A stretch of 64,000 nt of DNA from assembly GCA_963814585.1 (NCBI GenBank), contig CAWFDF010000003.1, positions 128,001 to 192,000 on the forward strand, given 5' to 3'. A program made the position numbers. The DNA is from an uncultured delta proteobacterium (GTDB taxonomy: Bacteria; Myxococcota; Myxococcia; Myxococcales; Anaeromyxobacteraceae). Positions 37,701 through 43,700 of the stretch are shown one piece after another (position 1 is the first letter of the stretch; each line of letters starts with the position of its first letter).

Positions 37701-40700
37701 TCCGCGGCGACGACGGGTTCGGTCCCGCAGTGGCGGGCGCCAGCAGGAACTCGAACCACGACGCCGACGTCATCGTCATCGGCTCCGGCATGGGAGGGCT
37801 GACCACCGCCGCACCCCACGACGGGTGCGGCACCGTGTCGCAATATACGCTGGAATTTCCTGTACTTGGACGCCACGGAGGTGTCGATTCGACTTGCGGT
37901 TCCATAGGGCCCGATTACCTGAGGTGGATGTTCCGTTGGCTTCAGCGGTGCGGGCGTTCCAGGGGCATGGTGCTGGCGGTCCTCGCCGCGGCCATGGTCG
38001 GCCTCGTTCCCTCCAGCGCCACGGCCGACGCCGGCGGGCTGGCCTTGCGCCTCGACCCGACGATGGCCTCCGACCCCGCCAGGCCGGCCCCTCCTCCCGG
38101 CGCCCTCCGGGGCGCCCTGGAGGCGGCGCCACCGGACGCCGGCGCGCTCGACTTCGATCTGCTGGGCGAGGCCCCGGCGCCCACCGCCGGCCCGGACGCC
38201 GGTGCGCTCAGGACCCGCCGCACCATTCTCACGCTCCACCAGGGGCTCGGCATCGGACTGGTCGGCCTCTCGGTGGCGACCGTGGCCGTCGGCCAGCTCG
38301 ACTACAACGACAAGTTCAACGGTGGGCCGAACACTGGCAAGTACCGCGCGCCGCACGCGGTGCTCGCCTACACCACGGCCGGCGTCTTCGCCGTCACCGG
38401 CCTCACCGCGCTCCTGGCCCCGTCGCCGGTCGAGGCCCCGGCGACCCTGGATTGGGTCATGGTGCACCGCATCGCCCTCTTCACGGCCACCGCGGCCATG
38501 GCCGCCCAGGTGGGGCTGGGGATCTACACGGCCTCGCGCGAGGGCTACGTCGACCAGGCCGGCGTCGCCAAGGTCCACCTCGTCCTCGGCTACGTCACGC
38601 TGGCCGCCATCGCCGCCGGCGTCGGCGCGCTGGTCTTCTAGGAGAACTGGTGACCTCCCTCCTGCTCGCCCTGACGCTCGCCACCGGTGGCCCGGCCACG
38701 ACCAGCTGGGTGGTCGACCCGGCGGCCAGCACGGTCCGCTACCGGGTGGTCCACAAGCTCCACCAGGTCGACGGCGCCTCGAGCCGAATCGAGGGCAAGG
38801 CGTCGGTGCAGGCCAACGGGCACGTCATCACCATGCTCCGTGCACCCATCGACTCCTTCGACTCCGGGGATCGGAACCGGGACTCGCACCTGCTGGAGGT
38901 CATGGAATCGGCCACCCATCCCTTCGTGGTGGTCAAGGCTGCCGGGGCGCTGCCCCCGGGGACGGCGACGGTCGGTGCCCCGGCCTCGACGGCGCTGCTC
39001 CAGCTCGACGGGGCGGTCGAGTTGCACGGGGTCAAGCAGCCCATCTCGGTGCCGGTCGAGCTCGAGGTCCGCGGGGACGGCTCGGCACGGGCCCGGGGCG
39101 GCTTCGACGTCAGCCTGGAGGCGCATCGCGTCGAGAGACCCTCGCTGCTCTTCGTGAAGGTCGAAGATCGCTGCCGGATCGAGTTCGACCTGGCGCTCCA
39201 GGTGGCCTCGCCGTGAACTGGATCGCCGCCACCGGGTTCTTGCTCCTGGCCGGCTGCATCCCGGAAGAGGGTCCGATGATGTCGCCCGGGGAGGACTGCC
39301 TCACCTGCCACCAGGGCGGCGAGGCCAGCCGGTGGAGCGTGGCCGGGACCGTCTACCCCGGCCTCGACTCGCCCTCGTTTGACGGCCTCCACGGGGCCAC
39401 CGTCACCGTCACCGACGCCACCGGGCGGACCATCTCGCTGCTGACCAACCTGGCCGGGAACTTCTACCTGGCCGACCCGCTCACCTTCCCGCTCAGCACC
39501 TCGGTGGCGGCGGGTGGCCAGACCCGGACCATGGGGGTGGCCGTCGCCTACGGGGGCTGCAACAGCTGCCACCGCCGGCCGGGGCGGGGGTGGGTTACGC
39601 CGTTTGCCCCGCCGTCGGCCGCGCTCGGGCCGGACGGCTAGCCCCGCGGCCCGGTCCCGCCGTCCACCGTCGCCGAGTTCCCTCCGCTTCACCCGCAGCC
39701 AACCATCACCCGCATCGAGGTGCTCACGTGAACCACCAGCCTGCCGCCGCCACCGCCTCCCGCCGTGCCGCGCCCTCCCCGTCGCTACCCTCCACCCGCT
39801 TGCTCTCCTCCGCCCTGGTGGGCGTGGTCGGGGCCGGCGGCCTGGCCGGCTGCACCAAGTCGGCCAATCCGGTCGACTGCGCGGCACCGACCTACAACAA
39901 CACCATCACCGGGACCCCCACCAACCCCATCCCCGCCGACCTCGCGGAGTTCACCGCCAGGTGCGACGCCCGGGGTGGCTTCGTCCAGACCCACGCCTGG
40001 TGCGCGGGCGCCAACAGCTGCAAGGGGCTCTCCCTGAGCTTCGGCGTGCTCACCGACCACTCCTGCAAGGGCATGAACACCTGCGAGGGGTTCAGCTGCG
40101 TCGACGGCGTCACCGACAAGGGCCTGACCGGCGCCTCCATCTACGCCACCTCCTGCAAGGGCTGCCACGGCGACGGGAAGTTCGTGGTCCTGGCCAGGGC
40201 CGGCAGTGCCGCAGAGCGGCTGGCGGCCTTCCAGGCCACCACGCCCGAGAACGCGCTCCGCCTCCTCTCGGTCGTCGCCTTCGGCACCCAGGGCCAGAAC
40301 GCCAACGGGACCGGGTACGCCAACATGCCCATCTTCAGGCAGCAGCTCTCCCGCCCCGAGCTCCAGCGGGTGGTGGACTACGCGCGAGCCCTCCCCGCCG
40401 AAGCCGCCGAGTACGTGGCCTGGTAGGCGCGGGGCGATGGGGGCCCCGTCACCTGGTCCGACGGGGCCGTTGACCTCGCCGGGTCGCCAGCTCGATCCCC
40501 TGGCGCGCCGCGTGGCCCGCGACGCGCTCGGGATCGGCCTGCGACCGCAGCACTACCCCGAGTTCTTCGAGCAGTGGCCGGAGCTCGGCTACCTGGAGAT
40601 CATCAGCGACAACTTCATGGGGGCCGCGGCCCTCCCGCTCCGGCACCTGGAGCGGTTCCGGGAGCGCTACCCGATCGTGCTCCACGGCGTCGGCCTCAAC

Positions 40701-43700
40701 CTCCTGGGCGAGGCGCCCCTCGACGAGGCCTACCTCGACCGGCTGGCGCGGCTGGCCGACCGCGTCGACGCCCCGTTCGTCACCGATCACCTCTGCTGGA
40801 CCGGCGCCCACGGCATCTCGCACCACGACCTGCTCCCCGCCCCGTACCTCCCCGAGCTGGTCGAGCTGGCGGCCGAGCGGGCCGCGGCGGTCCAGCGGCG
40901 GCTTGGGCGGCCCTTCGGCATCGAGAACCTCTCCACCTACCTGGAGTTCACCACCTCGACGATGACCGAGTGGGAGTTCTACACCTCGGTGGTGAAGGCC
41001 TCGGGCTGCTGGTTCATGCTCGACGTCAACAACGTCTACGTCTCCAGCGTCAACCACGGCTTCGATCCCCGCGCCTACCTGCGCGCCATCGACCCCTCGA
41101 GGGTGCTGCAGGTCCACCTGGCCGGGCACTCGGTGGAGGCCGACGGCACCATCGTCGACACCCACGACCACCCGGTCTGCGACGAGGTCTGGCGCCTCTA
41201 CGCCGAGACCTGGCGCGCCGGCGGGCCATTCCCCACCCTGCTCGAGTGGGACGGCCGAATCCCGCCGCTGCGGGAGGTGGTTGGCGAACTCGAGAAGGCG
41301 CTGGAGGTCCGCCGGTGACGGCCCGGGTAGCCCCTCCCTGGCTCTCCGAGCTGCAGGCGGCCTTCGGCGCGCTGCTGCAGAGACCCCTCGACAGGTCCAC
41401 CGGGACGCTGCGGGCCCGCACCGAGGACTACCGGCACGGGCTGGTCGCGCTGGTCAAGCCCGGCTCTGGCCTCGACGCCGGGGGGCGGCTGGCCGTCTAC
41501 CACCGCCAGTACTGGTTCCGGCTGCTCACCGCCTTGCAGGACGACTTCCCGCTGCTGGCCCGCCTGCTCGGCTTCTGGGAGTTCAACGGCTGGGCGGCGC
41601 GGTACCTGGTCGAGGCTCCCCCCGGTGGTTCGAACCTGCAGCGCGCCGGCGACGCCTTCCCCGCTTTCCTCCAGGCCGTCACCGGCCCGGGGTGGGTGGG
41701 CGGAGCGGGCGGCGACCAGATCCCGCGCGCCGCCCTGCTGGAGGCCGCGGCCATCGACGGGGCCTGGCGGGCGGTGCTGGCGGCGCCCGCCGAGCCGCCC
41801 CTCGAGCCGGCCGGGATCGAGGCGTCCAGCTGGCCCTCGCTCCGGCTGCGCCCCCGGGCCTGCTTCGCCGTCGTCGAGGAGCACTGGCCGCTCTGCGAGC
41901 TCCGGCGGCGGCTGGCCGGGCTGCCGGTCGAGCGGGCGGCGCCGCTGCCGCCGCGCCACGGCTCGGCGCGCTGGTTCCTGGTGGGCTGCACCGGGGCCTC
42001 GGTGCTGGAGCGGGAGCTCGGGCCGCTCCAGGCCCGGCTGCTGCGCCTGCTGGGCGAGCTCCCGGTCGGGCAGGCCCTCGCCAGGCTGGAAGCCGGGTGT
42101 GACGAGGCGGCGCGGCGCGACCTGCCCGGGCTGGTGGAGCGCTGGCTGGCCGAGGCGGTCGGCCTCGGCTACTTCGCCGGGGAGGCACGTTGACCCCCTC
42201 GCCGGCACCGGCGACCGGCGAGCCGCCGCTCGGGACGGCCGTACCGGTGCGACGCCTCCTCCTCGCGCTCGACGGCTTCGAGCCGACCGGAGGCGGACTC
42301 TCCCCCTTCGTCGAATTCCTCCTCCGGATCAGGACCGGGCTCACGGCCTCGGACCAGGCGGCGGTGCGCCAGGCTGCCGGCGAGGTGCTGGCCCACCCCG
42401 GCGCCGCGACCAGCGGTCCGTGGGCCATCGCGTTCGCGCTGCTCCTGGCCGCACCGGCACCGGCCTCCGCCCTGGCCCGCTGGCGCCGGGAGCGCTGCGC
42501 CGACCCGGGCCCGCTCCGCGCCGCCGCCGGCCTGCTCGACGCCGTGGTCGCGGAGCTGGCCACCTCGTCACGCCCCTTGCTGCAGATCGACACCGGGACC
42601 ACGCTGGCCGATCCCTGGCGTCGCTGGCTCGGCGAACGACTGGAGGCGGACCCACGGGTCGCGCCGGCCCACACCCGTGACGGCGCCGGGCCCGGCCAGG
42701 CCCTCGTGGCCGGATGGCCGGAGCAGCCGCTGCTGCGGAGGTTCCTCCTCGCCGCCGCCATGTGCGGCGAGGCGTCCCCCGCCCACCCCCTCCTCTCGGC
42801 CATCGGGGTCGGCCCGGACGACCTCGACGGCGCCGTCGACCTGATCGACCAGCGGCTCTGCGGCGAGGGGGGCGAGGACGGCGGCGTGTTCCTCGACGAC
42901 CTGGGCTACCAGCACCCCGGCTTCCCGGGCCTCCTCACGTATCGCTTCGTCGACCCGGCGCTGCGCCAGGGGATCCTGGCGGGTGAGGCCCCAGGGGCCG
43001 TGGCCGGTGAGGCGCGGCGGCTGCGCATCGCCGTGCGGTCCCGCCTGGAGGTCACCACCCGGGCCATCGCCCAGCTCTACGCCAACCTGGGCGGGCTGGA
43101 GGGTCCGCCGGCTGGGGACGGCCCCCGACGGCGGCTTCGCCTCTGGGTCGGCGAAGCCGACGAGGCCAGCCTCGCCGAGACCCTGGCCGAGGAGCTGCGC
43201 CGCGGCGCCGCCGCCCCGCGTGCCCTCCTCGCCACCGCCCTCCGCGACGGCGCGCTTGCCACCCCTCAGCGGCTCGCGCTGCTGGCCGCGGCGCAGGACC
43301 GGGCCGAGGCGGCGGAGCCGGAGCTGGCCCTCGCCATCCACGTGGCCCGGACCCGGCTGCTCCACGAGGCCGGTCGCCTGGACGATGCCGGGCGCAGCGC
43401 CGCCGAGGGACTCCGCTGGGCCGAGGTCCACGGGGAGGCCGGCGACGGCGCCCTCCTCTTCCTCGCGGCCCGCTGCCACCGTGAGCAGCGGCGGCTGGAG
43501 GCTGCGGCGCAGGCCTTCACCGACGCCGCCGGCGTGGCCTCGCTACCGGATCCGGCCGGGAGGGTCAACTGGCACGACCTGGGGGTCTGCCTCGCCGAGG
43601 CCGGGCGCTGCCACGCCGAGCGCGGCGACTGGACCGCGGCGATCCAGCTTCTCGGCGAGGCGGCCATCCACCTGCGGCGCGGCGACCTGGGCGGCACCGT

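Follow-up and report, generated by a model that had tools for sequence, protein, structure and literature searches.

The window, a stretch of 64,000 nucleotides, contains a three-gene cluster on the + strand, to which all coordinates refer. The first gene (39728..40426, GTG start) encodes a fusion precursor of 232 aa, built from a lipoprotein signal, a linker, a six-Cys domain and a monohaem cytochrome c. A hydrophobic signal stretch and lipobox (LAGC) at 39794..39853 end at Cys42, the predicted lipid anchor. The bufferin-like domain (residues ~68-126, 39929..40105), an apparent circular permutation of BufA2, holds C79, C92, C98, C113, C119 and C124 (spacing 12,5,14,5,4) together with His89 and His111. 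It is followed by a predicted class I monohaem cytochrome c domain (residues ~130-228, 40115..40411) with its CxxCH (CKGCH, residues 143-147, 40154-40168) and a putative distal haem ligand, Met200 (40325-40327). Pfam Cytochrome_CBB3 (PF13442) matched residues 134-218 over its cut-off (E 1.1e-6), and NF050166 (BufA2) matched residues 87-122 at E 2.5e-4, its 21.2 bits falling short of the cut-off (60). The four-Cys model PF10048 (DUF2282) was not found on the fusion protein, nor over cut-off in its own genome. An earlier note on this DNA had described a lipoprotein joining a six-Cys domain to a CKGCH cytochrome; its ORF, residues, Pfam and NF050166 scores were all reproduced. Cys42 was invariant in 24/24 aligned rows. 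A simple pattern rule found a lipobox-like pattern in 64/71 fusions, most misses looking N-terminally cut, and by pattern rule the protein is predicted to be a lipoprotein with an export signal. Purifying selection acted on both domains in 8/8 pairs examined, with dN/dS of 0.06-0.28 for the six-Cys domain and 0.15-0.41 for the cytochrome (pairs not independent). The fusion gene is real and is conserved, beyond chance, in myxobacteria and Oligoflexus. A promoter and terminator scan at the locus gave nothing above chance.

The second gene (40437..41318) encodes a BufB-type MNIO maturase with its conserved motifs intact, scoring 317.5 bits with NF050167 (BufB, cut-off 310). Its start may be ATG 40437, TTG 40470 or GTG 40512, all in frame. 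The third (41315..42193) encodes a DUF2063 partner of 292 aa (DUF2063, E 6e-15) and begins at a GTG that overlaps the stop codon of the MNIO gene (GTGA). The NF050167 and DUF2063 matches confirmed that the fusion gene lies directly upstream of an MNIO maturase and then its partner. This order is described as strictly conserved for bufferins (PMC12452194). The earlier note had the fusion followed by both genes without exception (14/14); the link proved strong and not absolute. MNIO was present in 16/16 fusion loci and DUF2063 in 15/16, the contig of the sixteenth (L010) ending within MNIO. In a second set, three loci of which repeat the first, MNIO adjoined 10/11 intact fusion loci, and in metagenome loci 5/7, the two exceptions being the same sequence. 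Fusions without an adjacent MNIO were L086/L087 (4 kb visible) and L040 (1.1 kb visible), the genome of which carries another copy that is linked to an MNIO. No MNIO was seen at the cytochrome-free loci L019, L023 and L024.

A quick tree of MNIOs, without bootstrap, placed all 26 sequences adjoining the six-Cys domain (20 fusion, 6 cytochrome-free) on one side of a branch with SH-aLRT 94. Twelve canonical Buf2 MNIOs, among them the second MNIO of the same genome, lay apart from it. The shared branch supports the six-Cys domain as substrate of these enzymes; it could also arise if the precursor-MNIO block moves as one unit. No further candidate substrate came to light, since the second MNIO of the genome is paired with a canonical BufA2 of its own (73.4 bits, NF050166) and the search for a DUF2282 gene returned none.

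Three further genes lie upstream on the same strand: a membrane protein whose hydrophobic stretches contain four His (37928..38641), cytochrome b561-like by eye and without a Pfam or NCBIfam match; a YceI-like protein (38650..39216, E 2.5e-15); and a lipoprotein with two CxxCH motifs (39213..39641). They were rejected as core genes, because only 1/29 loci of the two-CxxCH lipoprotein had an MNIO within 1.5 kb. The YceI gene was present in 16/29 of these loci and the membrane protein in 16/29. The trio is a separate myxobacterial three-gene module, adjoining the fusion just in Anaeromyxobacteraceae-like loci (the window, L001, L037/L102 and L082).

A YtkA-like gene, of which the 4.3 Mb genome has one in all, was near 7/16 fusion loci (8 if a weak match is counted) vs 0/8 cytochrome-free loci. 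Some of the genomes behind these neighbour counts are related to each other (L009/L016, L013/L015), and the profile used for the YtkA count had been seeded with five of the YtkA loci. The accessible part of PMC13344008 links YtkA/CtaK to the assembly of CuA. RegB/RegA-like pairs, below cut-offs, lay within 6 kb of 4/16 fusion loci and were absent at the other 12. A P1B ATPase and FixS (ccoI/ccoS) were near the fusion at L008, Rieske and cytochrome b genes at L004, and a Rieske gene at L010. Together with ccoI/ccoS, the YtkA-like and RegB/RegA-like neighbours give a hint that oxidases may be supplied with copper. In the window, no YtkA, RegBA or oxidase gene stood beside the fusion cluster.

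All 25 family domains examined had Cys spacing 12,5,14-16,5,4(5) with the CxxxGG helix first, whereas 12/12 canonical BufA2 cores had 5,5,6-11,5,12-13 with this helix last. The two conserved His were not invariant in those 12 cores, and they are also kept in cytochrome-free forms. A rotated block order scored best (dabc, 18.1), with dcab, bdca and dcba within 0.8 bit. When isolated, 23/24 domains matched NF050166 and no other NCBIfam model (best E 6e-6). At the level of sequence, the domain thus resembles a circularly permuted BufA2 to which two His have been added. The earlier description 'BufA2-like' fits the six Cys and the weak NF050166 match, but the Cys blocks are ordered and spaced differently from those of BufA2. 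Derivation of the permutation from a 12-Cys tandem Buf2 was not supported, as the unit repeated in tandem members is itself already permuted. The fusions are probably not the published 'CxxxxC' precursor family, whose lactamase and DoxX neighbours were absent from the loci examined; none of five fusion accessions was present in two published spreadsheets. The short cytochrome-free members could still belong to that family.

A word-indexed search gives the 10 relatives to which the family had been limited before, but a domain profile found 218 clusters at 50% identity. Among the best 150 of these 218 matches were 70 other true fusions, not counting P0052, an additional regex hit, or P0087, whose tail is spurious. 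In 72 fusions, counting the window's own protein and the false fusion P0052, the six Cys were conserved in 71-72, CxxCH in 72, Met200 in 70, His111 in 71 and His89 in 60. The cytochrome part carried just the two haem Cys in 70/71 fusions.

AlphaFold2 modelled the fusion with a pTM of 0.61 overall, the cytochrome mostly above pLDDT 80 and the six-Cys part at pLDDT 50-84; at this low confidence, contact between the two domains is not established. Foldseek with the domain-only model (pLDDT 64.8) returned nothing under E 4.5, solved structures contained no bufferin-like chain for either profile searched, and the ESM Atlas gave only generic cytochrome c clusters under 0.9. The top structural matches to the cytochrome domain were c-type cytochrome domains (best Z 7.7, 7o38_A, rmsd 2.8, 73 aligned; next 7.3). 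By motif and predicted fold, the C-terminal part would be a class I His/Met monohaem cytochrome c. It resembles class I chains (c6, CcoP domains, anammox Kustc0562/0563) in CxxCH and distal Met, no listed chain being more than 30% identical. It differs by two additional predicted strands (152-157, 224-229), and no specific subfamily could be named. Five cytochrome c assembly genes (PF01578 matches) were over cut-off in the same genome.

Among the nearest characterised systems is Bufferin 2 (BufA2/BufB2/BufC2, BUF_6/12Cys; Caulobacter vibrioides buf2ABC), which shares the precursor-MNIO-DUF2063 order without DoxX, an MNIO above the BufB cut-off, an export signal, six Cys, and the CxGxNxC repeats and CxxxGG helix. 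The Bufferin 2 partner combines DUF2063 with a C-terminal RRE-type domain; the window's partner has the DUF2063 match, and its length of 292 aa fits. The fusion differs from it in Cys spacing and order, the two conserved His, a score below the NF050166 cut-off, its own MNIO branch and the C-terminal cytochrome c. Captophorins (MNIO-PME1 5-thiooxazole metallophores, PMC13097082) likewise combine MNIO, DUF2063 partner and Cys-rich precursor. The RiPP-lipoproteins DybA and NedA are MNIO substrates whose lipobox Cys is spared for lipidation; in the accessible part of their source they are without a haem domain and come from a screen limited to 50-160 residues (PMC13056109). PMC12452194 records lipoprotein bufferins (~16% of Buf2) and precursors as long as 835 residues, which removes the earlier reservation that 232 aa is large for a RiPP precursor.

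A bufferin-cytochrome c fusion as such is already known. The earlier search had returned no paper on such a fusion, but under the spelling 'Cytochrom_C' the legend of Fig. 3j of PMC12452194 lists Buf1/Cytochrom_C and Buf1/Cytochrom_C/FGE-sulfatase fusions (WP_017136223.1, WP_160059411.1), described as 'a few instances' in Pseudomonadota genomes. These also place a bufferin domain before a cytochrome c domain in a single chain; they use the four-Cys DUF2282, whereas the window's family uses the permuted six-Cys domain and comprises at least 70 clusters. The only Buf2 fusion named in a figure legend there is MerC/Buf2. A four-sequence Buf1 profile run on longer proteins gave 120 matches among 8000 scored candidates; none of the 120 has PF00034 or CxxCH, and the published fusion sequences are not among them. 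Four members of the present family are rows of Data set S2 of PMC13097082, with no DUF2282/KC/CK flag. The six-Cys-cytochrome family is not described in the main text of PMC12452194 or PMC13097082, the latter main text having no mention of cytochromes. The label 'rare new class' was therefore overstated, given at least 70 other fusion clusters, printed bufferin-cytochrome fusions and four members in print.

Our preferred reading, held tentatively and at slightly under even odds, is a lipid-anchored, thiooxazole-bearing copper site connected to a His/Met haem, which would control whether the copper is oxidised or reduced. The three-gene bufferin-type (captophorin) cluster would then produce a membrane-anchored copper-redox protein, its lipobox, six-Cys domain and His/Met cytochrome c lying, as the sequence shows, on one chain. 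In the cytoplasm, MNIO and its DUF2063 partner would turn Cys of the six-Cys domain into 5-thiooxazoles, as gene order, MNIO family and co-clustering suggest. It is very probable that this domain is the substrate of the adjacent MNIO; the earlier prediction of an MNIO substrate with a tethered haem is strengthened by the MNIO tree, the MNIO-linked cytochrome-free forms and the Cys conservation given above. In the accessible part of the source, Buf2 modification is recorded as -18 Da with a 305 nm band (10.1101/2024.03.18.585515); by analogy, four thiooxazoles and one disulfide (-18 Da) may form here. MNIO would spare Cys42, Cys143 and Cys146. Sec export, lipidation of a lipobox Cys and cytochrome c maturation are established pathways. 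They would next export the chain, lipidate Cys42 and attach haem covalently through the cell's maturation system. The accessible part of the bufferin source also has Buf1 binding Cu(II) via thiooxazoles (10.1101/2024.03.18.585515), and by this analogy the fusion probably binds copper, through thiooxazole thiols and probably His111 and His89. The haem, about five residues downstream, would swap one electron with the copper and with periplasmic redox partners. Cu(II)/Cu(I) so set could serve holding, detoxifying, or passing copper to YtkA-type chaperones or haem-copper oxidase assembly. That haem-copper electron transfer is the purpose of the fusion is possible, with chances not quite even. Rather doubtful is the full joint reading, in which a redox-active haem-copper protein with a copper site built by a RiPP enzyme acts either as a minimal catalyst or as a copper reductase or chaperone that loads haem-copper oxidases. 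In this reading the six-Cys domain would count as a third bufferin family, circularly permuted and served by a separate MNIO lineage.

The fusion could instead be a passive copper buffer like Buf1 and Buf2, in which the tethered cytochrome is co-regulated and carries electrons or adds stability, but exchanges no electrons with the copper. Cytochrome-free forms are as common, making up 78 of the best 150 relatives, so that haem is dispensable for many, and they share the MNIO branch; at L043 a fusion and a cytochrome-free gene stand in tandem ahead of a single MNIO. The characterised bufferins are buffers in the accessible part of 10.1101/2024.03.18.585515. Still, this is unlikely, as the fusion persists across 70 clusters at 50% identity with conserved haem ligands and a short linker, and PMC12452194 lists a Buf1-cytochrome fusion separate from it. 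Fusion and cytochrome-free domains also segregate in the domain tree (5 changes vs 52 shuffled), a quick tree on 72 columns with 86/156 forks open that does not decide which form arose first. The two His, together with redox-sensing and respiratory neighbour genes, would suit a small haem-copper enzyme, with a catalytic thiooxazole/His copper site acting on superoxide, peroxide, O2 or a nitrogen oxide and the haem as built-in relay. Cytochrome-tethered copper enzymes such as copper nitrite reductases do exist, although the matches are weak (E ~0.09) and concern architecture only. Yet the domain has 60 residues and no solved relative, its His persist where the cytochrome is missing, and tandem forms with 2-4 six-Cys domains look like binding capacity rather than catalysis, which makes an enzyme quite improbable.

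Similarly improbable is that the six Cys stay unmodified, forming three disulfides or binding metal directly while MNIO acts elsewhere. The score below the BufA2 cut-off and the copies without MNIO fit this, as does an MNIO on the opposite strand in 6 cytochrome-free loci; but in 5/5 opposite-strand loci examined, the 700 bases upstream of MNIO contained no further precursor showing bufferin Cys motifs, the MNIO branch tracks the domain, and the fusion abuts MNIO in the canonical precursor position. A periplasmic sensor, in which copper binding shifts the haem redox state and a RegB-type kinase reads it, would account for the RegB/RegA-like pairs. It is very hard to credit, these pairs being missing from 12/16 loci and the window, and the fusion being without a transmembrane or signalling part.

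Bufferins have been described as passive copper sponges, and a haem-tied family would carry a built-in optical probe of the redox state and hand-on of bound copper. If the preferred copper-haem reading is true, a single chain passes three Cys-specific systems (MNIO heterocyclisation, lipidation and haem attachment), and MNIO has to act on part of a set of nine or ten Cys without touching those of the lipobox and haem. The permuted domain and MNIO branch add a precursor family missed by current profiles. Databases label its proteins 'c-type cytochrome' or 'hypothetical protein', and members occur in the cultured strains Cystobacter fuscus, C. ferrugineus and Oligoflexus tunisiensis.

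The fusion precursor gene lies at 39728-40426 on the plus strand (an ORF of 232 residues). It is followed on the same strand by an MNIO gene (40437-41318, start uncertain), which begins ten bases past it, and by a DUF2063 gene (41315-42193), the start of which overlaps the MNIO stop. The encoded protein opens with a hydrophobic stretch closing with LAGC (Cys42), followed by a linker of low model confidence, a six-Cys part (Cys79, 92, 98, 113, 119 and 124) and a cytochrome part (CKGCH at 143-147, Met200). The Pfam and NCBIfam scores given for this protein in an earlier note were reproduced, and the window MNIO exceeded the cut-off of NCBIfam BufB, the MNIO maturase family (317.5 vs 310). 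Purifying selection acts on the six-Cys and cytochrome domains alike (8/8 related pairs), and the fusion gene is real.

The structure model was confident across most of residues 130-225, and the cytochrome resembled class I c-type domains, the highest Z being 7.7, and fell into no clear subfamily. Cytochrome c assembly genes are present in the source genome. The tail carries no Cys beyond the haem pair in 70/71 fusions, which would fit selection against stray Cys in a chain exposed to the MNIO. Longer haem motifs were seen among the 71 fusions (CX3CH in 6, CX4CH in 1, CX5CH in 1); fusions of this kind are at loci L009, L016, L031-L035 and L008 and in profile hits P0014 and P0106.

The ten relatives counted in the earlier note were recovered by word-indexed search, but the family is larger. 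A six-Cys domain profile was built from 24 sequences and run against 1.84 billion representatives, yielding 218 matches, 167 of them with E 1e-10 or better. Among the best 150 of these 218, 70 carried a cytochrome tail and 78 stopped after the six-Cys domain, some being fragments; P0052 and P0087 were removed from the 150 listed matches as spurious. Conservation was counted over 72 tailed rows, with the window protein and P0052 included. Five of the six Cys were invariant and Cys98 was present in 71/72; CxxCH was found in 72/72, Met200 in 70/72, His111 in 71/72 and His89 in 60/72. The spread is patchy, with the six-Cys domain in 13/401 genomes of the phylum. Hosts with names were Myxococcota and Oligoflexus, and members are labelled 'c-type cytochrome' or 'hypothetical protein' in public databases.

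The permuted six-Cys domain also occurs in lipoproteins that lack the cytochrome (L017-L024, L039; P0016, P0021, P0061, P0094, P0101), which form a separate precursor family without a name. Some carry tandem domains (two to four copies in 8 cytochrome-free forms among the matches listed), and their MNIO pair is often on the opposite strand. In longer fusions (L044:1144-2460, minus strand; also L040 and P0015), PF11617 (Cu-binding_MopE-like) repeats and an EF-hand-like motif precede the six-Cys domain.

The only NCBIfam match of the six-Cys domain was NF050166 (BufA2, the Buf2 precursor), found in 23/24 domains and always under the cut-off. Cys spacing in the fusion family was 12,5,14-16,5,4 in 25/25 genes (the last value being 5 in one row), as against 5,5,6-11,5,12-13 in 12 canonical BufA2 cores from the same phylum. 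The CxxxGG helix is the final element of canonical BufA2, whereas it comes first in the fusion-family domain. When the canonical profile was rotated to place its last block first, the mean score rose from 14.7 to 18.1 bits; the rotated profile scored higher in 142/159 domains, and its order ranked top among the 24 block orders. As the domain repeats internally, three further orders that place the same block before the repeats came within 0.8 bit of the best. The best score of the rotated profile and the leading position of the helix therefore support a circular permutation of BufA2 and leave its register unfixed. One possible mapping would equate C79 with C6, C92 with C1, C98 with C2, C113 with C4 and C119 with C5; C124 would then occupy the position of the canonical Trp. 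The AlphaFold2 domain model (pLDDT about 65) consisted of helix, strand, hairpin and strand, and a search for solved relatives of the domain gave none. Both profile and Cys order place the fusion family outside Buf2.

The MNIO gene directly follows the fusion in 16/16 genome loci, and DUF2063 is present in 15/16. At L009 (Cystobacter fuscus) the MNIO (6663-7519) is split over two frames and is whole in other strains, the split being either a sequencing error or a real break. In the phylum sample an MNIO was found at 10/11 intact fusion loci, three of which repeat earlier loci; one further genome of the phylum carries the fusion, then a cytochrome-free gene, then the MNIO. Metagenome fusion loci had an MNIO in 5/7, with none within 4 kb at the remaining two, which are one sequence. 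Cytochrome-free genes adjoin MNIO and DUF2063 on the opposite strand in 5/8 loci and at L039; in the 5 opposite-strand loci examined, the region upstream of the MNIO contained no rival bufferin-motif ORF.

A quick MNIO tree without bootstrap was computed from 46 sequences, with identical-species repeats and the frameshifted MNIO omitted. A branch with SH-aLRT 94 separated the 26 MNIOs adjoining the permuted domain from all the rest (12 canonical Buf2 MNIOs, 2 linked to Buf1 and 6 others). The second MNIO of the source genome is on a different contig, beside its own canonical BufA2. The window MNIO retains the motifs common to the MNIO set, which we take to contain the iron ligands. It also has the Asp named as catalytic base in the accessible text of PMC13097082. 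The next position, which is Asp in the Cys-Lys group as described there, is Gly in the window MNIO and variable across its branch. L066, L067, L069 and L065 have other bufferin-like precursors, which score under the BufA2 cut-off and show repeated partial matches; their MNIOs formed a branch of their own (SH-aLRT 99).

The fusion most likely functions like a bufferin. We infer thiooxazole formation, copper binding and electron transfer between haem and copper. For Buf2 a mass shift of -18 Da is given in the part of 10.1101/2024.03.18.585515 available to us; by analogy, four modifications and one disulfide would be expected in the six Cys of the fusion. The disulfide joins the first and last Cys in Buf1, according to the accessible text of PMC12452194. 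By this analogy the pair would be 79-124, and by the permutation mapping 79-92.

The concept of a bufferin-cytochrome fusion has been published before, listed in passing: the same text of PMC12452194 names Buf1/Cytochrom_C and Buf1/Cytochrom_C/FGE-sulfatase fusions, together with a MerC/Buf2 fusion, lipoprotein Buf2 and precursors to 835 residues. To that extent the 'new class' of the earlier note does not hold; as judged from sequence, however, the permuted domain, own MNIO branch and conserved haem partner set the family apart from known bufferins. The first screen of that paper, for signal-peptide precursors, had an upper limit of 200 residues. Its genome table lists the Cystobacter MNIO WP_095990896.1 without a Buf1 or Buf2 precursor; the adjacent accession, WP_095990895.1, belongs to the fusion family. 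Four rows of Data set S2 of PMC13097082 are family members with no class flag, and 'cytochrom' has 0 occurrences in its main text. No description of the family was found in a literature search covering mostly open-access text, with the supplementary PDFs of PMC12452194 and PMC13097082 outside it.

Neighbours were surveyed over fusion loci summing to 174 kb. YtkA-like genes were found in 7/16 fusion loci vs 0/8 cytochrome-free loci (four by Pfam, two weaker, one with a profile for which five of the loci supplied the seeds), and L005 is a possible eighth with a weak match. RegB/RegA-like pairs were near the fusion in 4/16 loci, a P1B ATPase with FixS at one, TonB-dependent receptors at two and Rieske genes at two. 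These neighbours point to copper handling and respiration, the genomes sampled being related. None of these gene types lies beside the fusion in the window cluster, and the single YtkA-like gene of the source genome (4.3 Mb) is distant from the window. Directly upstream of the fusion at L004 (1749-5700) are Rieske and cytochrome b genes, a gene for one protein that combines cytochrome bd-I-like and cytochrome c domains, and a membrane protein without family name.

The three window genes upstream of the fusion (37928-39641, plus strand), encoding a four-His membrane protein, YceI and a lipoprotein with two CxxCH, are a separate module. The two-CxxCH lipoprotein was found in 75/251 genomes of the phylum; at its loci a YceI gene was present in 16/29 and the membrane protein in 16/29, in varying order. 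Neither this lipoprotein nor the membrane protein had a family match in Pfam or NCBIfam. In two genomes (G109:C46:167747-170312; L079, G114:C11) the lipoprotein family adjoins canonical BufA2 genes or lies within about 2 kb of them. The second, canonical Buf2 cluster of the source genome (L025:605-3365, G000:C12) has directly upstream a YceI-like gene, called by eye and with no Pfam match, relatives of which stand beside 5/13 other canonical Buf2 loci.
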